Shown here piece by piece: positions 5,882 to 43,545 of a stretch of DNA of 43,545 nt. The notes below the pieces were generated by a model. That model had not been told where the DNA came from and made no database searches. It saw only the letters and a program-made list of their open reading frames with translations. This stretch comes from an uncultured Melioribacteraceae bacterium (lineage in GTDB: Bacteria; Bacteroidota; Ignavibacteria; Ignavibacteriales; Melioribacteraceae): NCBI GenBank assembly GCA_964639525.1, contig CAZXDS010000002.1, positions 1-43,545 on the forward strand, in the 5' to 3' direction. A program made the position numbers and the translations under genes. Numbering within the stretch: position 1 is the stretch's first letter; each line of letters opens with the position of its first letter.

Positions 5882-6081
5882 GATTTGAAAGCTATTAATA
5901 TTGTCGGTTTTTGTTATCTGTAATTTTTACAAAAAGAATGTACATCAATATACAATATTCATAAATGCCGGCGCATAATAATTTTAATCAATTCGAAGTC
6001 AAAATTAAAACAAATATTAACAATTACTTGCAGCATTAAATGCAAATATTTCGGCAAAGACAGAATCCGGCTTTCGACTGA

Positions 6082-6142
6082 TTTTCCGATTAATTTTTTT
6101 TTACACTAAAAATTGTAGAACCGACTTTCCTCGCAGAGTTCT
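6082..6142 (+). repeat. Repeat unit 1: 48-bp direct repeat ending in a degenerate GTAG-headed palindrome (REP-like)
   Basis: 6082-6129 matches 6215-6262 at about 44/48 positions. GTAG is at 6115-6118, followed by AGAAC..GTTCT (a weak 5-bp stem). Confidence 0.6.
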
Positions 6143-6214
6143 GTGAATAGCAGCAATTCGGGGGCAAAATTAAAATCAAATAGAATAATGATTTATAACG
6201 ATAATAAAAAATAT

Positions 6215-6272
6215 TTTTCCGGTTAATTTTTTTTAATACTGAAAATTGTAGAACCGACTTTCTAGTCGGTTC
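6215..6272 (+). repeat. Repeat unit 2: 48-bp direct repeat ending in a perfect GTAG-headed palindrome (REP-like)
   Basis: GTAG at 6248-6251. Hairpin GAACCGACT-TTCT-AGTCGGTTC at 6251-6272 (9-bp perfect stem). Confidence 0.65.
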
Positions 6273-6338
6273 ATCTTTCAATGTCTTAAAATATTTAATT
6301 TTCTTACGTTTTTCCAAGTTTTCTCTACATTTAGCCAG

Positions 6339-6363
6339 GAACAAACTGGAAAGTTTGTTCTAC
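6339..6363 (-). repeat. Inverted GTAG-headed palindrome (REP-like), paired with the 6248-6272 copy
   Basis: GAACAAACT-GGAA-AGTTTGTTC followed by TAC. On the minus strand this reads GTAG-AACAAACT-TTCC-AGTTTGTTC. It has the same architecture as 6248-6272, with the stem changed CG to AA on both arms. Confidence 0.6.
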
Positions 6364-6613
6364 AACAACAATTTAATATTGAAAATTGTATTATTTGACT
6401 CTGAATCGCTGATAATTTATAATGTTATTTTCTTTGTTTTTTATCTTTAATTTCCCTGATGCAGTTTAGTATATTCTATTTGTCGTAATATCAATGAATT
6501 AAATGTAAAATATTAAAATAGTTCACTATGATAATACTACTCTTTTTTTTATTTTATAAAAAAAATATTTCACTTTTTTCACTTTAGTAAACTTTTTAAA
6601 AAAGGAGTTTGTA

Positions 6614-8509
6614 ATGAGTATCTTTTCATCAAAATCGCAGGAAGAAGTAGAACGATTAATTGAAGAAAATGATGAATTAAAAAATCGTTTGCACGTTCTC
6701 CTTCAAAAACAAAAGACTCAGGAAGAATTTGAAGGCAAACTTGCTGAAGCGAGGCAGGAGCTTTCAGAAATTTCATTTGAAGAACGGGATTTGGAAACCA
6801 AGAAAAGACATTTAATAAGTGATGTTGAAGAGAAAACGGATGAGCTTAAAACCTTAAATGAAAAAATTCATGAATTGGAAGAAATTTGGGAAAATCTAGA
6901 AAAGTCAATGAATTCAAGCGACAAGGAAATTGAAATTGCAAAAGAAGATCATCAAAAAATTATTTCTGAAAATGAAAAACTTGAAAATGATTTGGAGCAA
7001 AACAGAACGCAGTTGGAAGAATTAGAAATAAAAAATAAGGAAAATCAGGAAAAACAAGAATCGTTAATTAAAGAGATAGAGGAATTAGAATCTAAACACA
7101 GCGACCTTATTGATGCCGAAAACCGAAACAATGAGTTGCGAATTGAGAATGAATCTCTTGAAGAGAGTATAAAACAAATAAAGTTAGAAATTGAAAATTT
7201 TTCGAGCAAGGAAGAAAATTTTAGAACTAAATTTGAAGAAACCTCAATATTGCTTGCTGATAAAGAGGCTGAATTAAGTAAACTTGAAGAAAAAATTTCA
7301 ATGAGCGATGAAGTTAAGTCCAACCTCGAAAACAGCCTTTCTTCATTAGTTGCGGAGCTTACTGAAAAGGATAAAACTTTTACAGAATATTCAAACAAAA
7401 AGGAAAAATTAAACGAGGAAATAATTGAAAAACGCAAACAGTTGTCAGAGCTTGAAAATAAGTATAAATTTACTGATGAACAGCTTGCCGATTTGAAAAC
7501 TCAAATAGTTGAGTCTGAAAATGAAAAAAAAGAGATTAATGATGAAATAAGGAAATTTGAACTTCTTAAGAATGAACTTCATAATAGTACTTTGGATATG
7601 AGGAATGACGAGGAAGAGTTAAAAGCAAAATTAAATGATTTGCTTGTAAAAATTAAAGATAGCGAAAGCAGAAAATTTCAGATTGAAGAAAGTCAATTAA
7701 ATGCTGAGAAAAACTTTTCGGAAACGCTTCAAAAGTTTAGTGAGGAAATAAACGAGGCAAAAGAAAACTTAAATGCCATTAAAGAAAATTATCTTCAAAA
7801 GGAAAAAGAATTAACGGAAAAAGAGCACGAACTTACTGAAAAAACAGCCCAAATAGTAGAATATACCGGATTATTAAAGGTTATGAGCAAAGACCAGGAA
7901 GCGACTCAAAAAATAGTGGTTTCTTTGAAAAATGACCAAAATGAGCTAAAAGAAAATATCGTTGAATTAAAAAACAAAGAATCCAAAATAAAATCTGACA
8001 GTCGAAAAATTATTTCTGATATTGAAGTGTTGCAGATAAAGAAAAGTGAAATTGAAAAGGAAATAGTATCTTTGCTGGAAAAGGCAAGCGCGGATTATTC
8101 AGAAACTCAAACTAAAAAGGATGATGTTTTTGGTGAAGTAAAAATGGCAGGAAATAAACTTACTGAATTAAAGGAAGAAATTTCTTCGGTGAAAAACGAG
8201 ATAAGAATCTTGAATGAAGATGTTGCAAAATCTACGGTAACAAAAGAGAAAAATACTGCCCAAATTTCTCAATTGGTTGTTTTAGAAAAATCTTTGAAAT
8301 CCAAAATTGAAGACTACAGAAAAGAGATGGAAGTTTTGGGAATTGATGATAGGGAGAATTTGCAAAAAAATGAAAACGAAATGAAACCCGCCGCCATAAA
8401 TAATGAAAAATATTCTGCCGAAGATGACAAAATTGCAGATGAGGAAGTTAAGACTTTGAACGAAACGGAAGTTAAAAAGGAGGATGATGAAAGTGAAAAC
8501 AATAAATAA
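6614..8509 (+). CDS. Long coiled-coil-rich protein (E/K/L/N-rich, no TM helix and no recognisable catalytic motif)
   Basis: 631-aa ORF with a strong SD (AAAGGAG, 7 nt upstream). Heptad-like charged composition runs throughout. No Walker A motif seen. Confidence 0.7.
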   Translation: MSIFSSKSQEEVERLIEENDELKNRLHVLLQKQKTQEEFEGKLAEARQELSEISFEERDLETKKRHLISDVEEKTDELKTLNEKIHELEEIWENLEKSMNSSDKEIEIAKEDHQKIISENEKLENDLEQNRTQLEELEIKNKENQEKQESLIKEIEELESKHSDLIDAENRNNELRIENESLEESIKQIKLEIENFSSKEENFRTKFEETSILLADKEAELSKLEEKISMSDEVKSNLENSLSSLVAELTEKDKTFTEYSNKKEKLNEEIIEKRKQLSELENKYKFTDEQLADLKTQIVESENEKKEINDEIRKFELLKNELHNSTLDMRNDEEELKAKLNDLLVKIKDSESRKFQIEESQLNAEKNFSETLQKFSEEINEAKENLNAIKENYLQKEKELTEKEHELTEKTAQIVEYTGLLKVMSKDQEATQKIVVSLKNDQNELKENIVELKNKESKIKSDSRKIISDIEVLQIKKSEIEKEIVSLLEKASADYSETQTKKDDVFGEVKMAGNKLTELKEEISSVKNEIRILNEDVAKSTVTKEKNTAQISQLVVLEKSLKSKIEDYRKEMEVLGIDDRENLQKNENEMKPAAINNEKYSAEDDKIADEEVKTLNETEVKKEDDESENNK

Positions 8510-8595
8510 AATAGAAAATTTTTTTGATGCTTTATTATTCAACTAATTTAATGTTCTGATTTATAGAGTATAAATTTTCTTCATAATTCATGTAT

Positions 8596-8714
8596 GAGCC
8601 CACTCTAAAAAGCCACAAACGGACTAAAGTCCGTTTGGGGAAGTTCGTTTTTAGTCTGTTCCCCCACGACTGAAGTCGTGGGTTAGTAAAAATATTACTT
8701 TTTAGAATGGACTC
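8596..8714. mobile_element. MITE copy 1 (119 bp; 17-bp TIRs; 6-bp TSD ATGTAT)
   Basis: The ends are GAGCCCACTCTAAAAAG and CTTTTTAGAATGGACTC. Flanking hexamers ATGTAT lie at 8590-8595 and 8715-8720. Internal hairpins are CAAACGGACT-AA-AGTCCGTTTG and CCCACGACT-GA-AGTCGTGGG. Confidence 0.72.
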
Positions 8715-8863
8715 ATGTATTGTGTATTGTTGCAAAATGGGAAGTTCTTAAAAATAGACAACGATTTTCAAATAATAGACTATTTATCTAATTTTATCGC
8801 TATTTTGTTTTGGCAAGATTTTTGCAGTTTAACTAATTATGAGAAACATCAATTTAAATTATA

Positions 8864-9631
8864 ATGACTAACAAATTATTAACAAAAATAAATTTTCTGC
8901 AAGTAATATTTATTTTGTTTTTGGGCTTGTTTTTTTTAAGCTCGTTTAAAACAAATGTTGCAAAAGTAACATCTCCAATTGAAGCAGATACGGCAATTTA
9001 TTTAAGGAACACAAATTACGGAAGACAAATTGCTCTCTTCAAGCTGAATAAATTGAAACATGCTGACATTGTTATGCTCGGCAATTCCTTAACGCACGGA
9101 GCAAATTGGAACGAACTTTTGGGAAGACAAAGTGTTGTGGAGGAAGGCATTGTAAGTGATGTAGTTGAAGGCTTTTATCATAGAATGAAGTATGTGTATA
9201 AACTAAAACCTAAAATTGTTTTTATACTTGGCGGATTAAACGATATATATAATTGGACTCCGGTTGAGGAAATTTATAAAAACTATATTAAAATAATTAA
9301 CGGACTTAAACTTCGGCGGATTATACCTGTAATACAATTAACTACTTATGCGACCGGTTATTATGCAAAGGATTGGTTAAAAAAAACTCATCCTGAAATT
9401 AATGCTAAAAACTATAATAATGGAAGAAACAACGAAGTTGACAAATTGAATAGATTATTAAGAAATTACGCTAAAGTGAACCATATTGACTTAATTGATT
9501 TAAATTCCAAAACTAGAAGAGGTCATTTTCTAAAACGGGAAATAACTCTTGACGGTGTTCATTTTAATGATAAAGGCTATAAAATTTGGGTAAAAGAAAT
9601 AAATAAAATTTTAAAAAAATATAAATTATAA
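8864..9631 (+). CDS. SGNH/GDSL-family hydrolase or acyltransferase, secreted or membrane-anchored
   Basis: 255 aa with an N-terminal hydrophobic segment. Block I MLGNSLTHG, block III GGLNDIY, block V DGVHFN. Confidence 0.75.
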   Translation: MTNKLLTKINFLQVIFILFLGLFFLSSFKTNVAKVTSPIEADTAIYLRNTNYGRQIALFKLNKLKHADIVMLGNSLTHGANWNELLGRQSVVEEGIVSDVVEGFYHRMKYVYKLKPKIVFILGGLNDIYNWTPVEEIYKNYIKIINGLKLRRIIPVIQLTTYATGYYAKDWLKKTHPEINAKNYNNGRNNEVDKLNRLLRNYAKVNHIDLIDLNSKTRRGHFLKREITLDGVHFNDKGYKIWVKEINKILKKYKL

Positions 9632-9645
9632 AGAAAGGAAATAAA

Positions 9646-11184
9646 ATGCAGAACGAAAAAAATTATTATAAAATCCCCTTGAAAATTGTAGTGTATATTA
9701 TTTTGCTGCTTGTAGGTATTTCTTACATTCCGCAAGATATAAATATTTTCGGCTATACTCCTAAACATTTGGATATTTTTGCTGACTTAAAAACTACCGA
9801 GATTCAGGACACTTCAACAATTGATAGAGAAACTAATAAAGAGGAAATAAAGAACGAGGGGACAGACGATGAATTTATTGATCCCGATTACGTAGCTCCG
9901 GACAGTGATTCTGAAATGCAGAATGATTCTTCCCTGCTTTTTGATTCTCAAAATAATGCACAGGTCAACAAAGCTTCATTCCCATTTTCTAATTTAATTG
10001 ATGAATTTGTCAATTCATATTTTGAGAATAGCGAGGCAAAAATTGACGGCATTAGAGCTTCAAGAGTAAAAACTCACCCTCAGCCAATTACAGGAAATGT
10101 TGGGCAGTTAAGATATTTTTTTGATGCACTAAAAAAAGCAAAAAAACAGAAAGTACGAATTGCCCACTATGGAGATTCGGCAATTGAAGGAGATTTAATT
10201 ACTGCAGATATTAGGCAAAATATGCAGAGTAAATTTGGAGGAAAAGGCGTGGGTTTTCTCTCCATTGTATCAAAGGATATTCAATTCAGAACAACAACTA
10301 AACAATCATTTTCACAAAATTGGGACTTTGCTTCGCTTTTTACAAGGAACCCCAAACATTATGAACTGGGAATAGCCGGAACAGTTTCAATTCCTAAAGG
10401 AAGCGCATGGGTCAAGTATAAAACTACGAGAAGATATAGAACGGTAAAAACTTTTAACGAAGCCCGCTTATTTTACACTGATGCCAAAAGAAATGCCAAA
10501 ATTACTTATTCGATTGACAATAAATCTGCAACATCTGCAAAATTGAAAACAGGCGGCAGAATTAATGAACTGACTATGGTTGCAGGGCATTCGGCTACAC
10601 AGATAAAAATAAATTTTCCCCAAAAGGAAATGGGGCATTTTTTCGGTGTTAGTCTTGAGGGCGGTAACGGTGTTTATGTTGATAACTTACCTTTACGAGG
10701 GAATACAGGGACTGATTTGCAGCAAATTCCCGAATCGGTTTACAAAGATTTTGGAAAAAAAATGAATTATAAACTTATTGTTCTCGAATTCGGGTTAAAC
10801 GCGGCGAGTTCAATAAAAGGTAATTTTAGTTGGTATGAAAGGGAAATGGAAAAAGTAATAAACAAACTGAAAAAAGCATTCCCCCAAACAAGCATAATCC
10901 TATTTAGTGTGCATGATAAAAGCAAAAAGAAAGGCAGCAAATTTGAAACGGATCCGGTAATTTTAAAATTAATCAAAGCGCAAAAAAACATTGTGCGGAA
11001 AACGAGAATTGCGTTCTGGAATATGTGGGAATCGATGGGTGGAAAAAATTCAATGCCGAATTGGGTAAATGCAAATCCGCCGATGGCATTTAAGGATTAC
11101 ACTCATTTTAACAATCAGGGAGCAAAAAAAATTGCTAAAATGTTTAGCGACGCTTTAATTAAAGCATATAATAAACATCGGTAA
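9646..11184 (+). CDS. Membrane-anchored SGNH-domain protein (AlgJ/AlgX/PatB/Ape1-like candidate)
   Basis: 512 aa with an N-terminal TM helix and an acidic linker. Block I AHYGDSAIEGD, block III EFGLNAAS, block V DYTHFNNQG. SD AAAGGAA upstream. Confidence 0.65.
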   Translation: MQNEKNYYKIPLKIVVYIILLLVGISYIPQDINIFGYTPKHLDIFADLKTTEIQDTSTIDRETNKEEIKNEGTDDEFIDPDYVAPDSDSEMQNDSSLLFDSQNNAQVNKASFPFSNLIDEFVNSYFENSEAKIDGIRASRVKTHPQPITGNVGQLRYFFDALKKAKKQKVRIAHYGDSAIEGDLITADIRQNMQSKFGGKGVGFLSIVSKDIQFRTTTKQSFSQNWDFASLFTRNPKHYELGIAGTVSIPKGSAWVKYKTTRRYRTVKTFNEARLFYTDAKRNAKITYSIDNKSATSAKLKTGGRINELTMVAGHSATQIKINFPQKEMGHFFGVSLEGGNGVYVDNLPLRGNTGTDLQQIPESVYKDFGKKMNYKLIVLEFGLNAASSIKGNFSWYEREMEKVINKLKKAFPQTSIILFSVHDKSKKKGSKFETDPVILKLIKAQKNIVRKTRIAFWNMWESMGGKNSMPNWVNANPPMAFKDYTHFNNQGAKKIAKMFSDALIKAYNKHR

Positions 11185-11227
11185 AGATTAAATATTTTAA
11201 ATTGCTTAATAATTTAATAGGGCTTTT

Positions 11228-12694
11228 ATGGAGGTTTTTTTACAAAATTTACTTGGACAGTTAAGTTATAATCCAACTGAACCGTTAATTTTTAATACCG
11301 GATTCTTTTTGTTTTTCTTTTTGTTCGTGCTGATATTCAATCAGTTTTTTGTAAATAATAAAAGGGCACAAATAATATTTCTGTTGTCGGAATCCCTTTT
11401 CTTCTATTACAAATCGAGCGGTATTTTCTTCGTCCTTGTAATAATCAGTTCTCTTATTGATTATATTGCCGGTAAATCTATTGCAGCTTCTGATTCTAAA
11501 GGCAGACGAAAATTTTACCTTATTATTAGTTTAATAACTAATCTCGGGATACTTGGTTATTTTAAATATACCAATTTCTTTCTAGACACATTAAATTCTA
11601 TCGGAGCCGGACATTTTGACATGATGGATATTTTCCTTCCGGTAGGAGTTTCCTTTTTTACTTTCCAATCAATGAGTTATACTATTGATATTTACCGCAA
11701 TAAGTTAAAGCCTGTGCATAATTTTTTCGATTTCGTGTTTTTTGTTTCATTCTTTCCGCAGTTGGTTGCAGGGCCAATTGTACGCGCAGCGGATTTTCTT
11801 CCGCAAATTCACAAACCAACCTTTGTTAGTAAAGCAGATCTTGGCAAAGCATTTTTCTTAATTATTGCGGGACTAATGAAAAAAGCAATTATTGCTGATT
11901 TTATAAGTATTAATTTTGTTGATAGAATTTTTCAGTGGCCCACACGTTTTACCGGAGTTGAAAATCTACTCGGTGTGTACGGTTACGTACTACAAATTTA
12001 TTGCGACTTTTCCGGCTACTCCGATATGGCAATTGGAATTGCATTGCTGCTCGGTTTCAGATTACCTGATAACTTTAATGCACCGTATAAATCCAAGACA
12101 ATAACTGAACTGTGGCAGCGGTGGCACATTTCACTTTCCTCCTGGTTACGAGATTATCTTTATATTCCGCTCGGAGGAAATAGGAAAGGGAACGTTAGAA
12201 CTTATATAAACTTAATGCTGACAATGCTGCTTGGCGGACTTTGGCACGGCGCTGCTTGGCGATTTATGTTCTGGGGAGGAATACATGGACTCGCTCTAGC
12301 TGTTGAACGATTTTTTCATATTCCTGAAAAAATTGAAAAAAAGAGATTTATTAAAATTATTGCTGTGATTATAACATTTCATATTTGGACAATTTCTCTC
12401 ATATTTTTTAGAGCACAATCTATTAGTTCTGCCCTTGATATTATTAATCAAATAGTAAATTATTTTAATGGAGCTGTTTTCTTCCAGTTTGTTAAAGCTT
12501 CACCTGTTGTTTTTGCTTTGATGATAATTGGTTACGTCTCCCATTATCTTCCAATAAAATGGGAATTGAAAATGAAAGACTGGCTTGCCGCAATGCCGAA
12601 TTGGGGAAGAGCTTTTGTGCTGGTTATTGTTATTTATATTGTTGCTCAATTTAAGTCTGCTGATATTCAGCCGTTTATTTATTTTCAGTTTTAA
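11228..12694 (+). CDS. MBOAT family O-acyltransferase (AlgI/PatA/DltB-like)
   Basis: 488 aa, polytopic. Signature WQRWHISLSSWLRDYLYIPLGGNRKG with the conserved His, plus downstream GGLWHGAAW. Confidence 0.9.
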   Translation: MEVFLQNLLGQLSYNPTEPLIFNTGFFLFFFLFVLIFNQFFVNNKRAQIIFLLSESLFFYYKSSGIFFVLVIISSLIDYIAGKSIAASDSKGRRKFYLIISLITNLGILGYFKYTNFFLDTLNSIGAGHFDMMDIFLPVGVSFFTFQSMSYTIDIYRNKLKPVHNFFDFVFFVSFFPQLVAGPIVRAADFLPQIHKPTFVSKADLGKAFFLIIAGLMKKAIIADFISINFVDRIFQWPTRFTGVENLLGVYGYVLQIYCDFSGYSDMAIGIALLLGFRLPDNFNAPYKSKTITELWQRWHISLSSWLRDYLYIPLGGNRKGNVRTYINLMLTMLLGGLWHGAAWRFMFWGGIHGLALAVERFFHIPEKIEKKRFIKIIAVIITFHIWTISLIFFRAQSISSALDIINQIVNYFNGAVFFQFVKASPVVFALMIIGYVSHYLPIKWELKMKDWLAAMPNWGRAFVLVIVIYIVAQFKSADIQPFIYFQF

Positions 12695-12699
12695 GTAAT

Positions 12700-12819
12700 G
12701 AGTCCACTCTAAAAAGCCCCAAACGGACTAAAAGTCCGTTTGGGGAAGTTCGTTTTTAGTCTGTTTCCCCACGACTGAAGTCGTGGGTTAGTCAAAATAT
12801 CACTTTTTAGAATGGACTC
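12700..12819. mobile_element. MITE copy 2 (120 bp; 17-bp TIRs; 6-bp TSD AGTAAT)
   Basis: The ends are GAGTCCACTCTAAAAAG and CTTTTTAGAATGGACTC. Hexamers AGTAAT lie at 12694-12699 and 12820-12825. About 95 percent identical to copy 1 by eye. Confidence 0.75.
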
Positions 12820-12932
12820 AGTAATTTTAAGGAAAAGGATTCCAAAATTGTTCTAAATAATAAGTTTTTTTCATATCTTTTTAAGTTAAAATTAAACTAT
12901 TTTTAATAATTGATTAATTTTATAAAACCGAT

Positions 12933-26531: not shown

Positions 26532-26648
26532 TTTTACCTCATTTCATAAATATTGGTTTCTAAAAATAGGAAGTAATAACATAAAATGTGTTTTAATATA
26601 TTAGAAATTTTTTTATTTAAAAAATTAGTTTGAAGACAATGCAAATAT

Positions 26649-26770
26649 GAGTCCACTCCGAAAAACTCCAAACGGGTTTTAACCCGTTTGGGATTGTATG
26701 TTTTTTATATCTTGTTTTCCCCACGTTGAAACGTGGGGTTAATGAAAATATTACTTTTCAGAGTGGACTC
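26649..26770. mobile_element. MITE copy 3 (122 bp; divergent subfamily; 6-bp TSD AAATAT)
   Basis: The ends are GAGTCCACTCCGAAAA and TTTTCAGAGTGGACTC. Hexamers AAATAT lie at 26643-26648 and 26771-26776. Internal hairpins are CCAAACGGGTT-TT-AACCCGTTTGG and CCCCACGT-TGAA-ACGTGGGG. Confidence 0.72.
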
Positions 26771-26867
26771 AAATATCAAATATTTGAAGAAAGCTAATAT
26801 TGTATTTTTTGAATAATATCAGTAAATTTGTACTCTTTATGAAAATGAATAAACAGGTAATGGAAAA

Positions 26868-27014
26868 ATGAAAAGAACGTATCAGCCGAGTAATAGAAAA
26901 AGAAAGAATAAGCATGGTTTTAGATTAAGAATGTCCACTAAAAATGGTAGAGCCGTGTTATCTCGCAGAAGAGCAAAGGGAAGAAAAAGATTAACTGTAA
27001 GTAACGAATTTTAA
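26868..27014 (+). CDS. rpmH: 50S ribosomal protein L34
   Basis: My own translation is [48 protein letters not shown] (48 aa). It is too short for the ORF track. Confidence 0.93.
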
Positions 27015-32865: not shown

Positions 32866-35700
32866 TTACCTCAGCAGCACCATTTTTTTTGCTTCCGCAA
32901 AATTAACGGTTTTCCCAACAGCTGTTAAGCGGTAAATATATACTCCGCTTGCAAGTTTAGAGGCATTAAAAATAATTTTATGACTGCCGGAGACAGACTG
33001 CTTTTCATTCACAAGTGTCGCAATTTCACGCCCTAAAATATCATATATCTTCAAATGAATTACCGGAATATCGCCACTCTTAAAAACCGGCACAAAATAT
33101 TTTATTGTAGTACTCGGGTTAAACGGGTTCGGGTAATTTTGATTTAATACAAATTTTGTCGGGTTAATTTCCCCTCGTTCTTTTACTGATTTAATAATGA
33201 TACCGTTATAAAAATTCTGAATAAACGCTGCTTTTTCTCTTAACTTGGTTATGCTGTTTAATCTGTCACTTCCTCGTGCCATTAAAATTGCATAAGCTAC
33301 TTCCTGTGTATCCCCGGCTGCAAGCGTAAAAGGGCCGGAAGATTCCATATATCTTTTATCCCCGCGAGTTGGTCCATCGGGCCAACCTGGTCCTTCGTAC
33401 CAACCATTTCCGCTTACAGGATCACCGGCAACCATAAAATGCGTAGTATCATTATTATTTGGAGCCAAAATTGGAGTGCCATAAATAGTAAAGCCTCGCA
33501 TATAGTTATACATCTGTTCTGTCCCCGCATATTCACTTTGATAGGGTGCCCCAAAATTTGGATAGCCAGGGTCCTTAACAAAAGAAATAAAAGAATTTAG
33601 CCCCTTGTTTAAATATCCTTTATGCCAGCCACTATTAAACCATGCAGAATCTTCCATTGTTGCCTGAACTTTTGGACCTTGTACCATCATGTGTCCAACT
33701 GCCGGAGGTTGTGAACCATAAAACCAGTCATCATATTCATCTCCGTTGTAAGTATAACCCAAATTTAACGAAGTATCTACTCCCACGTAATCATCTCCCG
33801 CAAATCCAAGATCGTCATCAGTCCAATATGATAAATACATATCCGTTATCGGGACATCTCCCTTATTTATTATTTTATATTTTTTAAAAACTACATCCTC
33901 TAATCTTTCTTGGTTATATCCCCAAATTGTAGTCTGAAATTCTAATGGAACCGGTGGTGAACCATACACATTAGCAGATAATTCAACATCCGCACTATTG
34001 TTTACATAAAAAAATGCTTCGTCTCCGAGAACATTGTCATCAACTCCGGGTGTATAAATTCCATCATTATCTCTATCAATAACCGGAGCACCTAAGTCAG
34101 CCGGCCAATTATTATAATCATATTTTAGCCTACTTTTTTCTTTCCCTTCGGGAAGGAGTTCCCAATTTTTTTTACTCTTATATATTTTATACTCTGATCT
34201 TTGGGGAATATCCGGCATTCCATTTTCCAATATAATACCGGGGCTAAATCCATGACGATAATTTGAGCCGTTGACTCTAATTTCATCATTATATTTTCCA
34301 CCGAAAAAGAGCCCATCCTCAAAAACAGCAGATATTGTTGCATCTATTCCACCGGGCCAGAAAAAGCCACCGTTGTCGGTTTGCGGGTTATGTGAACCGT
34401 CTCCGTTATTTCCAAACCACATCCTAACATTGTTTACTGCGATTTTATCGTAGGCTTGATATACTATTACAGACAGAGATGAGTCATTTCTATCATAAAC
34501 ATTCGGATTATTTGAATCGGTTATTTTTATATAAACTGAATTTGAGTTTATTTCAGGTACTAACCAAGAATATTGTAATGAATCTGCAGGAAAGTTAGAA
34601 TCTATTTCTGTCCAAGAACCTTCTAAAGCAGTTGAATATGAAATATTAATAGTTGTGCCGGATATATTATATTTATCCCATTTAAGAACTGTAATTTTGT
34701 CGGGCTTAAAAATGTTATAATACGAAGGATTATAATGTAGTGTTAATGTTGAATAATTCCCAATAGAATCTGTTCGTAATAAACTTGAATTTTTTACGTA
34801 CATAAAAAATCCGCCATCATTTGCTTTGTAAATACCTCCGGATATTTTCGGAATTTTCTTCTGCCAAATAATGTTACCTAAGCGATTAATTTCACTTAAT
34901 GTTGTATCTCCTGCCGAGATAATATTATGATTAGGTAAAACATTTGCAAATTGATTAACAAGAGCCGTATTTTCCCAAATAATTTCTGCATTTAAGTTAT
35001 ATCGTGAAATAGGTCCCGATTTACCGGTTAAACAAAATCCATCAAAAAAAGGAAAAATTGAATTTATTTCGGGAGTTTCCTTTTCCCATAAATAAGCTCC
35101 ATGAATATCAAATTTGATTATGCTATTTCCTGTACTAACTAAATACGATAAATCAGATAATCTAATTATTTGCATGTTTACATTGGGACTTATATTAATG
35201 TACCAGTATGTTTTATTCCAAATTACCGTACCATCAAATTCAGTTTTTTGCATGTAGAGTTGATCACCCTCAGCTCCCAATATTAACAGTTTAGAATCTG
35301 CGGTAATAATGATGTCATGAAAATAAAAAATATTTTCATCATCGCCATATGTATAATCGCTAATCGAATTGCCGAGTGAATCATAAACCATTAAACAAAT
35401 ATCGTCATCGTTGTTTGTATAGCCTGTTAAATAATTACCATTTGATAATTTAATTGTTTTATTAATATAATTTTTTGTATTTATTGTTTTTCTCCATTCG
35501 CTAAATCCTTCCGCATTTAATTTTATTAGATTTATATTATGCCATTGGATGCTAGTAATAATACTGCCATTATCATCTGTGGGCAACAATGTTTTGTCAG
35601 AGTAAGAACTCAAAAATTTTAAGAATGTCGTACGTTGAGCTTTTATATTTAGAAATGCTGTAATTATAAACAAAGATAGTAAAACTTTTCCTGCGTTCAT
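32866..35700 (-). CDS. T9SS-secreted multidomain protein (beta-propeller-like repeats, Ig-like domain, conserved unknown module, type-A CTD)
   Basis: 944 aa with a signal peptide. The repeated G..(I/L)W.K motif (SEWRK, VIWNK, YLWEK, IIWEN, IIWQK) suggests a propeller. The C-terminus LNQNYPNPFNPSTTIKY...GVYIYRL...KKMVLLR is a T9SS CTD. SD GGAGAAAGG. Confidence 0.8.
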   Translation of the reverse strand: MNAGKVLLSLFIITAFLNIKAQRTTFLKFLSSYSDKTLLPTDDNGSIITSIQWHNINLIKLNAEGFSEWRKTINTKNYINKTIKLSNGNYLTGYTNNDDDICLMVYDSLGNSISDYTYGDDENIFYFHDIIITADSKLLILGAEGDQLYMQKTEFDGTVIWNKTYWYINISPNVNMQIIRLSDLSYLVSTGNSIIKFDIHGAYLWEKETPEINSIFPFFDGFCLTGKSGPISRYNLNAEIIWENTALVNQFANVLPNHNIISAGDTTLSEINRLGNIIWQKKIPKISGGIYKANDGGFFMYVKNSSLLRTDSIGNYSTLTLHYNPSYYNIFKPDKITVLKWDKYNISGTTINISYSTALEGSWTEIDSNFPADSLQYSWLVPEINSNSVYIKITDSNNPNVYDRNDSSLSVIVYQAYDKIAVNNVRMWFGNNGDGSHNPQTDNGGFFWPGGIDATISAVFEDGLFFGGKYNDEIRVNGSNYRHGFSPGIILENGMPDIPQRSEYKIYKSKKNWELLPEGKEKSRLKYDYNNWPADLGAPVIDRDNDGIYTPGVDDNVLGDEAFFYVNNSADVELSANVYGSPPVPLEFQTTIWGYNQERLEDVVFKKYKIINKGDVPITDMYLSYWTDDDLGFAGDDYVGVDTSLNLGYTYNGDEYDDWFYGSQPPAVGHMMVQGPKVQATMEDSAWFNSGWHKGYLNKGLNSFISFVKDPGYPNFGAPYQSEYAGTEQMYNYMRGFTIYGTPILAPNNNDTTHFMVAGDPVSGNGWYEGPGWPDGPTRGDKRYMESSGPFTLAAGDTQEVAYAILMARGSDRLNSITKLREKAAFIQNFYNGIIIKSVKERGEINPTKFVLNQNYPNPFNPSTTIKYFVPVFKSGDIPVIHLKIYDILGREIATLVNEKQSVSGSHKIIFNASKLASGVYIYRLTAVGKTVNFAEAKKMVLLR

Positions 35701-35774: not shown

Positions 35775-37436
35775 TTAACGCAGTAAAATCATTTTTTTCG
35801 AAACTTCAAAACGTCCGGCTTCAATTCTGTATATGTAAATTCCGCTTGCGAGATTGCTTGCATTAAAATTAACCGAATACTTTCCAATAGGTTTCTCTTC
35901 ATTTACTAAAACAGCTACGGTTTCACCAATTATATTATAAACTTTGATAGTAACAAATTCATTTTCCGGCAGTGTATAATTAATTGTTGTAGTAGGATTA
36001 AACGGATTGGGATAATTTTGAGATATTGAATAATCTGTAGGAGTTTCATCAATCGGGATGCCCTTATCCGGTTTATAAGCATTATAAAATATTTTTAGCT
36101 TTGGTATTTCTTTTTTGAGTTCGGCAACACTTTGAAGTGCACTTAAGCCTTGTGCAACAATAATTGCAAATTCAACTTCTTGTGTATCGCCGGGAGCAAA
36201 ATTAAAAGGACCTGAGGATAACATCATTCTAACATTTCCAGGCGGTTGTCTTAAAAGTGAATCATTAATTCCTTCAAACCAGCCGGTACTATCAACAGGA
36301 TCTCCGGAAAACATATATTTTGTGGTATCGCCTGAAACAGGGTTTACAATTTTATCTCCATTTTTCTCCAAACCCTGAAAATAATTGTAAAAATGCTGCG
36401 GAGTTACAGAATCAGGAGACTGATTAAAAAAATCACTGCTGGGCAAGAGAAAACTAAAGGAGGTCATTCTTAACATTTCTGATTGTGCGGATTCCGGATT
36501 TGATTTAGGACCTTTTAGCATAACGTATCCCACAGCAGGCGGAGCGCCGACAAAAGCATCATCATCAGATGCATTAAAACAATATCCCAAATTTAATACT
36601 GAATCGCATCCTGCATAATCATTACCTGAATAGCCCAAATCCGGGTCCGACCAATAACCCAAATACATATTTTTTACTGTGTGCTGTCCCTTATTAATAA
36701 GTTTATATTTTTTAAAAATTACATTTTTCAAAAAGTCAGGTCTATCAAAACCGTATGTTGTTACTTGCATTTCAATCCCAATAGGTTCAACAAAAATAGC
36801 CCTTGAAAACTCACCATCAGATTTCCAGAAAATAGAAAGAGAGGAATCCAAATCATTTGCAACAAACCACAAAGTTTCATCACCGATGTAGCGGGGAGTA
36901 TCAACTCCGCGTGTAAAAATTCCATCACCGTTTAAGTCATTCCAAGGTGCTCCGTCTTCAACCGGCCATTCATTGTAATCTTTTTCATATAAATCCCGTT
37001 TGGGACCAGGAGGTAAAGTTTTCCAATACTTAAAAATTTTAAATACTCTGTATTTGTCCAAATCAGGATTATCGGCATTTCCACTGTTTAATATTTTACC
37101 GGACTGCATACCTGTTCGATATCTGCTGCCATTTGCACGAACCTCCGAATCAACAATTCCACCCCAGTTTAGTCCGTCTGTAAAAATTATGCTGCTTTTT
37201 TCAGATAATGAAGTTTCGCTATTTGACCATAAAAATCCGGAATTACCTGTACGAGGATCAATACTGCCCAAACCATTATTTTCCAACCACATATAACATT
37301 GGTTTATATCAATGAAATTGTAATTATTAATTGTGGAAATTTTATTTTGAGTGTTTTTTTGCGGGAATTTTCCGCCGATAAAAAGGAGAAATAAAATAGA
37401 GGTTAAACTAATAACACTATTCGTATTGTTTTTCAT
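35775..37436 (-). CDS. T9SS-secreted protein, paralog of the C-terminal 530 aa of the downstream 944-aa protein
   Basis: 553 aa with a signal peptide. It shares blocks with 32866..35700: (M)W..NNG.GS..P.T.N.GF.W, R.NGS.YR.G, Y..W.(T/L)LP.G, NDGI(Y/F)T.GVD, IFKKYK(I/L)INKG, PPAVG, SSGPF..A.GDTQEV. The CTD is SQNYPNPFNPTTTINY...GIYIYRI...KKMILLR. Confidence 0.8.
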   Translation of the reverse strand: MKNNTNSVISLTSILFLLFIGGKFPQKNTQNKISTINNYNFIDINQCYMWLENNGLGSIDPRTGNSGFLWSNSETSLSEKSSIIFTDGLNWGGIVDSEVRANGSRYRTGMQSGKILNSGNADNPDLDKYRVFKIFKYWKTLPPGPKRDLYEKDYNEWPVEDGAPWNDLNGDGIFTRGVDTPRYIGDETLWFVANDLDSSLSIFWKSDGEFSRAIFVEPIGIEMQVTTYGFDRPDFLKNVIFKKYKLINKGQHTVKNMYLGYWSDPDLGYSGNDYAGCDSVLNLGYCFNASDDDAFVGAPPAVGYVMLKGPKSNPESAQSEMLRMTSFSFLLPSSDFFNQSPDSVTPQHFYNYFQGLEKNGDKIVNPVSGDTTKYMFSGDPVDSTGWFEGINDSLLRQPPGNVRMMLSSGPFNFAPGDTQEVEFAIIVAQGLSALQSVAELKKEIPKLKIFYNAYKPDKGIPIDETPTDYSISQNYPNPFNPTTTINYTLPENEFVTIKVYNIIGETVAVLVNEEKPIGKYSVNFNASNLASGIYIYRIEAGRFEVSKKMILLR

Positions 37437-43035: not shown

Positions 43036-43545
43036 TTATCTAACCAAAATCATTTTTTTTGTTTTTGAAAAACTACCCGTTTCGTTGGTTGCGGATATTC
43101 GGTAAATGTAAATACCGCTTGATAATTTTTTAGAATTAAATGTTACTTGGTAATTTCCTTTGGACTCAAATGCATTAACTAAAGTTTCTATTTCTTTTCC
43201 AAGAACATTATAAACATTAACTTTAACAAAACTATTCTCAGGAATTGCGTACCTGATTATTGTTGACGGGTTAAAAGGATTCGGATAATTTTGATATAGC
43301 TTAAAACTATTTACACTTGCATTGTTGTCGTTTTGTACGTCAGTAATAACCGAATAATATACAGTTAGTCCTTCCGTAAAGAATCCGAAATGGAAATTGT
43401 CATAACTAATCTCAATTACTCCTATTCCCTGAACCCAATTGTTATTATACCAAACTCTGCACACAGCCGTTTTTAACAAACTATATTCATTGTAGGAATA
43501 CAAATATTTTATTGAATTTTGCCAGTTGTTGTTCCATAGCTTGTC
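43036..43545 (-). CDS. T9SS-secreted protein, C-terminal part (the ORF runs off the window end)
   Basis: The reading frame stays open to position 43545 (..DKLWNNNWQNSIKYLYSYNEY..). The CTD is YQNYPNPFNPSTIIRY...GIYIYRI...KKMILVR. Confidence 0.7.
   Translation of the reverse strand, partial: DKLWNNNWQNSIKYLYSYNEYSLLKTAVCRVWYNNNWVQGIGVIEISYDNFHFGFFTEGLTVYYSVITDVQNDNNASVNSFKLYQNYPNPFNPSTIIRYAIPENSFVKVNVYNVLGKEIETLVNAFESKGNYQVTFNSKKLSSGIYIYRISATNETGSFSKTKKMILVR

Follow-up and report, generated by a model that had tools for sequence, protein, structure and literature searches.

A short repeat in a Melioribacteraceae chromosome segment is probably a miniature transposon that keeps only the 17-bp ends of a transposase-bearing insertion sequence

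The stretch of DNA analyzed here (the window) comprises 43,545 nucleotides of contig CAZXDS010000002.1 from an uncultured Melioribacteraceae bacterium (assembly GCA_964639525.1). It is an ordinary chromosome segment, with prfA, rpmH-rnpA-yidC, aroE, MatE and MBOAT/GDSL genes and genes for proteins sorted by the type IX secretion system (T9SS), and its look is that of Ignavibacteria/Melioribacteraceae, the best named relatives of its MBOAT protein being from Melioribacteraceae and Ignavibacteria at about 70% identity. Among these genes lies a 119-bp sequence with two sisters. We regard the three, with high confidence, as copies of a non-autonomous DNA transposon, that is, a MITE (miniature inverted-repeat transposable element), which would have kept only the 17-bp ends of an insertion sequence (IS) of about 1.8 kb, whose transposase appears to be loosely and distantly related to the IS1182 family.

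Copy 1 (element 8596-8714, 119 bp) begins with GAGCCCACTCTAAAAAG and ends with CTTTTTAGAATGGACTC, and is bracketed by two identical ATGTAT hexamers (8590-8595 and 8715-8720) that fit the form A-W-W-N-W-T. Its left terminal inverted repeat (TIR; 8596-8612, + strand) and its right one (8698-8714, - strand; reverse complement GAGTCCATTCTAAAAAG) each carry one mismatch relative to the family TIR, the 17-mer GAGTCCACTCTAAAAAG, and the two ends are complementary at 15 of 17 positions. The interior holds hairpin 1 (CAAACGGACT/AGTCCGTTTG, 8616-8637), with TGGCTTTTTA next to it, and hairpin 2 (CCCACGAC-TGAA-GTCGTGGG, 8663-8682). Copy 2, on the + strand, occupies 12694-12825 with both of its AGTAAT duplications; the element itself (12700-12819, 120 bp) has TIRs at 12700-12716 and 12803-12819, hairpin 1 at 12717-12745 and hairpin 2 at 12768-12787. 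Copy 3, also on the + strand, occupies 26643-26776 with both AAATAT duplications, and its 122-bp element (26649-26770) has TIRs at 26649-26665 and 26754-26770, hairpin 1 at 26667-26692 and hairpin 2 at 26719-26738. When up to three mismatches were allowed, the family TIR matched the window six times, exactly at these six ends and in inverted pairs, against a chance expectation of 0.04 estimated from shuffles. Over 90 nt (repeat D2), copies 1 and 2 share 97% identity; copy 3 is more diverged, with 85-88% identity over two end segments (repeats D1 and D8), and is 87-88% identical to copies in the metagenome-assembled genome (MAG) JAHJTX01.

Copies 1 and 2 lie directly downstream of + strand genes. 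The former starts 87 nt past the last base of the upstream open reading frame (ORF), which ends at 8509, and the latter sits at a stop codon, its left duplication overlapping the TAA of the MBOAT gene (12692-12694) by one base. Copy 3 ends 91 nt before the start of rpmH (26868-27014, ribosomal protein L34; missing from the list of ORFs of at least 80 aa), the gene that heads the rpmH-rnpA-yidC cluster, and it therefore lies in the likely promoter region of that cluster. The copies have no coding capacity, the only ORF that spans copy 1 being a 66-aa frame on the - strand (8535-8735). No transposase was found in the window, either by tblastn with the family transposase or by Pfam scans of 30 ORFs, which returned only housekeeping genes. 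An earlier note on this DNA, made from the sequence alone, had described three copies with inverted ends and perfectly duplicated hexamers of variable sequence, placed copy 1 at that distance from its neighbor, dismissed the 66-aa frame as an artifact of the element, seen no transposase in the window and concluded that the element was a non-autonomous MITE; all of these statements held.

The element is one of many. When 185,579 species-representative genomes were scanned for the end motif CTTTTYAGARTGGACTCA, at least 113 loci were recovered, and the matches listed contain 81 candidate inverted TIR pairs lying 60-2500 bp apart, a few of them mis-paired. The short elements found in this way have many sizes, and their interiors are unrelated to one another and to that of the window element. 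A second scan, with a pattern specific to the interior of the window's subfamily, recovered at least 117 loci from two metagenomic data sets, Ga0180009 and VAPK01, in which complete copies, 118-120 bp long, number at least 74. Three subtypes could be distinguished: A, with window copies 1 and 2 and copies from VAPK01; B, from MAG JAHJTX01 and Ga0180009, with 18 identical copies; and C, with window copy 3 and one other. Among the metagenome loci listed, very many subfamily copies lie at contig ends, and the public Logan contig L114 corresponds to window positions 8687-12723, so that it starts within copy 1 and stops within copy 2; the reads of SRR6439371 also contain the locus. Both the identical subtype B copies and the breaking of assemblies at the element may be signs of activity. 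On contigs measuring 37 kb to 8 Mb, elements bounded by the TIR and flanked by a duplication, exact except in L028, where it has a single mismatch, came from at least seven phyla: Bacteroidota, Ignavibacteriota, Acidobacteriota (Pyrinomonadaceae), Cloacimonadota, Lentisphaerota, KSB1 and Spirochaetota. Matches assigned to other phyla consist of single ends or lie on short contigs, and may be binning errors. Viral carriage was not detected in IMG/VR, which gave only two unpaired TIR-like matches in unrelated sequence, taken as chance. In a Pyrinomonadaceae MAG (JAWKHN01), the same TIR bounds elements of about 417 bp that are arrayed head to tail (L055:5726-7046, L107:4296-5181 and L080:152-931), with a spacing of only 7 bp in L055, set within GTTCCAAG-type simple repeats.

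Target-site duplications were examined in 123 TIR pairs among the matches listed, the three window copies included, of which 67 had an exact 6-bp and 10 an exact 7-bp duplication. Within that sample, the genome loci and the window contributed 77 pairs with flanks (39 exact at 6 bp, 7 exact at 7 bp and 8 with one mismatch) and the metagenome loci of the window's subfamily 46 (28, 3 and 5, respectively). By our own arithmetic, a 6-bp identity would arise by chance in about 0.001 of pairs at this base composition. A logo of 71 distinct sites gave the palindromic consensus TTN[AWWNWT]NAA, with A at hexamer position 1 in 94% and T at position 6 in 92% of sites, a W-rich hexamer interior, T favored at -2 and -3 (65% at -2) and A favored at +8 and +9 (66% at +8). 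Insertion sites were non-coding, defined as outside any open frame of at least 150 codons after removal of the element in silico, in 74% of cases, compared with 18% of random positions in the same loci.

The same 17-bp TIR bounds elements of 1778-1880 bp at 15 loci (L011, L068, L084, L236-L243 and L246-L249), and each full-length element has a single ORF for a DDE transposase of 517-589 aa. Three of these loci came from the genome scan (L011, L068 and L084, the last being a whole 1882-bp contig), with ORFs of 540-589 aa. Six further transposase clusters on longer contigs (L236; L237-L240; L241-L243; L246; L247/L248; and L249) had the TIR on both sides of the gene in six of six cases, in elements of 1786-1849 bp. 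Identity between the transposases of different clusters is only 41-58%, with the 17-bp end unchanged. Duplications flanking full-length copies are of 6-7 bp (TTCGATT, CTTGAT, ATCAAG, TGCGGA and TTCAAG). A protein search returned 522 relatives at E <1e-10, named only "transposase" or "hypothetical protein" and for the most part on contigs of about 1.8-2 kb, and an exhaustive search of 1.84 billion cluster representatives gave 217 clusters at E <=1e-30 and 891 at <=1e-10. Both the further copies and the longer, transposase-bearing element with the same termini that the earlier note had proposed to look for were thus found. We also considered whether the MITE interior was taken from the subterminal sequence of the IS; this was rejected, as the IS and the MITE are alike only in their terminal 16-17 bases.

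IS1182-family elements, according to the ISfinder summary, have a single ORF, inverted repeats, a length of about 1.3-1.95 kb and a variable duplication. The full-length elements described here resemble that family (ISfinder; NF033551) in their single-ORF DDE transposase with an N-terminal DUF772 and a C-terminal DDE_Tnp_1_6 domain, in their terminal inverted repeats of 16-17 bp, in their length of about 1.8 kb and in their variable duplication. DDE_Tnp_1_6 and DUF772 scored above the Pfam cut-offs, as did DDE_Tnp_1 in one of L011, L068 and L084. Invariant acidic residues across 13 transposases include D157, D352 and E478, to which we assign the putative DDE triad typical of the family, and a cysteine cluster is also present. 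The best NCBIfam model was IS1182 (NF033551), aligned over positions 38-487 of 488, with scores of 86-121 bits against a curated cut-off of 270, and identity to annotated plasmid IS1182 transposases is about 23%. The plasmid search returned no close relative of the transposase, its best tblastn matches being at 23-31% identity (haloarchaeal "transposase" and Streptomyces "IS1182 family transposase" entries). NCBI labels members of the parent family simply "transposase," and the parent IS may deserve a subgroup or family of its own. The earlier note could not match the ends to any IS family, a question that the transposase narrows to a distant IS1182 relative below the model cut-off.

The surroundings of the full-length copies deserve a separate description. 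In most of the full-length copies examined closely (L011, L236-L243 and L246-L249), the IS is framed by inverted flanks, short in some cases and long in others, that read ...(T)nG-N6, IS, N6-C(A)n..., for example ...CTTTTTG-N6, IS, N6-CAAAAAG.... Five copies (L237, L238, L240, L246 and L249) repeat the 6-nt piece in direct orientation, as though the IS had inserted into a REP-like hairpin loop; L236 and L241-L243 have inverted instead of direct flanking hexamers, with inverted flanks of at least 65 bp in L241, and in L239 the IS stands in reverse orientation between flanks that are those of L238. Hairpins of this kind without an insertion occur at L091:52, L238:3517 and L241:3622. This preference for hairpin flanks is not visible at the MITE copies, judging from the 71-site target logo.

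Presence/absence polymorphism was examined at two kinds of homologous site. The spacer between the MBOAT and TPR genes, which holds copy 2 in the window, lacks the element in relatives with the same gene pair, namely, L115/L116 (JGI contigs, MBOAT 92% identical) and L118 (77%), and the window spacer minus the element and one hexamer is about as long as the spacers of these relatives. The element is thus not fixed at one orthologous position; fixation in all relatives was what the earlier note had named as a sign of a conserved RNA gene. The second kind of site is provided by copies of another dispersed repeat family that the MITE has entered, as ATTATT-MITE-ATTATT in L223 and, 12 bp away, as ATCGTT-MITE-ATCGTT in L181. 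An uninterrupted copy of that repeat in the window (6148-6216) is identical to the L223 flanks at 66 of 69 positions and contains each hexamer once, and L181 and L223 each serve as an empty site for the other. The expectation of the earlier note that unoccupied sites would show a single hexamer was therefore borne out in these paralogous repeat copies; an exact orthologous empty allele was not found.

This second repeat is unrelated to the MITE. In the window it extends over about 5989-6430, in the divergent spacer between the MatE and coiled-coil genes, and includes tandem partial copies (6082-6129 and 6215-6262) and a hairpin, GAACCGACTTTCTAGTCGGTTC, near 6250-6272. Copies with 75-97% identity are present in 12 VAPK01 metagenome loci, two of them interrupted by the MITE, and 34 nt of the window repeat (6104-6137) match a portion of the rpmH coding sequence (26936-26969) at 82% identity; the repeat has no Rfam match. 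The MBOAT-TPR spacer of another relative (L117:3308-3576, MBOAT 91% identical) holds a different insert of about 130 bp, which has its own hairpin (TGCATTACACTA...TAGTGTAATGCA) and lacks the GAGTCC ends, and this suggests that small insertions favor this spacer as a hot spot. Repeated DNA of another kind (repeat families D4 and D5) is common to both ends of three neighboring - strand genes of the window (32866-35700, 35775-37436 and 43036-43503); a T9SS C-terminal sorting domain was found in both scanned members of this trio, and the third is a truncated ORF.

All three subtypes keep the two GC-rich hairpins of the interior, and two explanations other than a plain MITE give these hairpins a role. 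The repeats could instead encode a small structured RNA, folded into two hairpins and a long terminal stem, and be duplicated or conserved at certain loci without being transposable DNA. The strong predicted folds of both RNA and DNA (z-score of -8 for the element DNA) would agree with this, as would the hairpin pairs that covary between subtypes. When 54 distinct copies were aligned, the hairpins were paired in 96-99% of cells, and subtype A departed from subtypes B/C at both partners of seven pairs, two of them in hairpin 1 and five of eight in hairpin 2, where 99% of cells are paired; this covariation is suggestive and not strong, because it amounts to essentially one evolutionary contrast. 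The would-be terminal stem behaves differently: its mismatches at columns 11/115 and 17/109 and at TIR position 8 in subtype A are fixed and uncompensated, and therefore fit protein-binding ends rather than an RNA helix. Rfam gave nothing at the gathering score in the window or in 16 related loci, including ones from Acidobacteria and Lentisphaeria; the best sub-threshold scores were 25.4 bits for AgrB (cut-off 40) and 19.4 for Acido-Lenti-1 (cut-off 37), the latter on hairpin 2 and a weak hint of a known RNA family. Acido-Lenti-1 had looked suggestive, since the TIR also occurs in Acidobacteria and Lentisphaeria, and was dropped when no locus of those phyla matched it. Considering in addition the hexamer duplications at 67 sites among the matches listed, the palindromic target consensus, the absence of the element at homologous sites, the transposase gene bounded by the same ends and the unrelated interiors of different subfamilies, an RNA gene is extremely unlikely. 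A second proposal adds to the MITE reading instead of replacing it, namely, that the element has been co-opted and its hairpins are selected as bidirectional terminators or 3'-end stabilizers. In copies 2 and 3, hairpin 1 with its T-rich tail is predicted to be terminator-like on either strand, and in copy 1 on the - strand; copies 1 and 2 sit shortly downstream of + strand genes. The double-sided pair changes in the two hairpins and the strong fold of the element DNA also speak for this proposal. Strong folding is also frequent in other MITEs with this TIR, as 58% of 38 interiors from the genome loci, 37 of them unrelated to this subfamily, have z < -3 among the matches listed; terminator-like MITEs such as SPRITE are treated in a recent review (PMC10969869). 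However, the double-sided changes form essentially one contrast and palindromes can also be homogenized without selection, hairpin 2 has no adjacent T-run, and a terminator would be of no obvious help to copy 3 upstream of rpmH. Nor was there an orientation bias relative to flanking genes or an excess of convergent neighbors (20 tandem, 3 convergent and 3 divergent). Co-option is thus possible, and we consider it doubtful.

The remaining alternatives concern the kind of transposition. Since every window hexamer has the form A-NNNN-T, the window alone does not tell a 6-bp from a 4-bp duplication, and the true ends could be T-GAG...CTC-A, giving 18-bp TIRs, a 4-bp duplication and a transposase of the IS5/IS1380 type. 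The A and T that begin and end the hexamer in all three window copies and in about 93% of the 71 sites would equally result if the TIR had an extra T...A. The hexamers that break this pattern decide the question: TTTATT (twice), AAAGAA, AATTAG, AAACGA and ATTATA are each intact on both sides of the element, and the duplication is therefore of 6 bp and not 4; likewise, the whole of CTTGAT, TGCGGA and TTCAAG is repeated on either side of full-length copies. We rejected the 4-bp model for the co-variation of these deviant bases across the element and hold it to be very unlikely. An even smaller probability attaches to a palindrome of the REP/BIME type, spread as single-stranded DNA by a RAYT (IS200/IS605-type) transposase of the Y1 class. 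The element is, as this would have it, short, intergenic, hairpin-rich and abundant. REP elements are not known to have long TIRs or target duplications, whereas both are present here and the partner is a predicted DDE enzyme, which leaves this origin almost no credibility.

The MITE reading, which we prefer, accords with a non-coding element well below about 500 bp that has TIRs, duplications of fixed length and variable sequence, dispersed copies and an autonomous partner with the same ends. Under this reading, a transposase from a full-length copy elsewhere in the cell would act in trans, bind both MITE ends and, by DDE chemistry and along either a cut-and-paste or a replicative route, insert the element at a loosely palindromic AT-rich site, TTN[AWWNWT]NAA, making staggered cuts 6 bp (in some cases 7 bp) apart; the flanking hexamer duplication would then arise as the gaps are repaired. 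The interior would be dispensable for recognition, because MITEs of other lineages have the same ends and unrelated interiors. Hairpin 1 and its T-run, which look like an intrinsic terminator on either strand, may help intergenic insertions to be tolerated or make them mildly useful.

It is also necessary to consider the points that weigh against this interpretation. No transposase of the family was found in the window or beside the subfamily copies in 665 kb of MITE-bearing metagenome loci, and a partner in the same cell is therefore presumed. The IS1182 assignment is loose, because all scores fall below the curated cut-off. No exact orthologous empty site was obtained: a single hexamer is not readable in the MBOAT-TPR spacers of the relatives because the spacer sequence has diverged, and the predicted empty site of copy 2 (TTTCAGTTTTAAGTAATTTTAAGGAAAAGG) had no exact match in the metagenome contig collection. 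About one-third of TIR pairs lack a clean duplication, for which the causes include decay, mis-pairing by the script and arrays. The window copies, with copies 1 and 2 differing by 3% and copy 3 by more than 15%, may be old and immobile. Finally, the evidence is sequence analysis throughout.

Similar elements have been described in other prokaryotes. The MITEs of ISMac2, an IS1182-family element of Methanosarcina acetivorans, are 160-169 bp long, with inverted repeats of 25-26 bp and a 4-bp duplication or none (Kamoun et al. 2013, PMC3852290). The elements studied here are likewise short non-coding derivatives with the inverted repeats of their partner, copy numbers in the tens and short duplications, but they occur in bacteria of many phyla, whereas ISMac2 is archaeal; they have a 17-bp TIR of another sequence and a 6-bp duplication, and their presumed transposase is only a distant IS1182 relative, under the NCBIfam cut-off. 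Abundant intergenic MITEs in bacteria include Correia in Neisseria and RUP, BOX and SPRITE in Streptococcus pneumoniae (PMC10969869). The present family shares with these its abundance, intergenic position, TIRs, strong secondary structure and, possibly, side effects of a terminator-like or regulatory kind, and differs in ends, duplication and hosts, since those elements are confined to a genus and this TIR spans phyla. The duplication made by Correia elements is TA. IS1397 and ISKpn1 insert into the loops of REP-like hairpins, and the IS1397 transposase belongs to the IS3 family. Most parent IS copies examined closely are comparable in lying between short inverted flanks, five of them with the 6-nt "loop" duplicated, but the transposase family is different and the preference is not visible for MITE copies. 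No family associated with IS1182, Bacteroidota or Ignavibacteria appears in the 2024 review of MITEs in prokaryotes (PMC10969869), and a recent survey found MITE clusters to be largely genus-specific (bioRxiv 10.1101/2024.01.18.576219). The 17-mer TIR was absent from the literature searched by sequence, where the 10-mer matches were unrelated primers. The family is thus apparently undescribed so far, and it appears to be a textbook MITE, an element of a known kind.

These observations can be combined into a broader and more speculative picture, which we regard as unlikely when taken as a whole: a distinct IS family, more than a divergent form of IS1182, with a frozen 17-bp end, targeting to hairpin loops and selected two-way terminator hairpins. 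The end would have stayed constant with transposases down to about 40% identity, across at least seven phyla, giving rise repeatedly to lineage-specific MITEs whose interiors are unrelated yet strongly structured. Autonomous copies may enter the loops of REP-like CTTTTTG-N6-CAAAAAG hairpins, which may echo the inner half of the element's own end, and the internal hairpins of the MITEs may be under selection as portable two-way terminators.

The family opens no new kind of mechanism, and its importance is of a more practical and evolutionary nature. The element breaks short-read assemblies, as many metagenome and Logan contigs end within it, yields spurious small ORFs such as 8535-8735, and accounts for repeated hairpin- and terminator-like sequences in genomes of Ignavibacteria and the Bacteroidota group. 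Together with its 17-bp end, the family offers annotators a simple marker, and it assigns a function to several hundred protein clusters now labeled only "transposase" or "hypothetical." Since one exact end is found in MITEs of mostly uncultured bacteria from at least seven phyla, against the largely genus-specific distribution of MITE clusters, the family is a tracer of horizontal transfer and of the repeated origin of MITEs from one transposase system.

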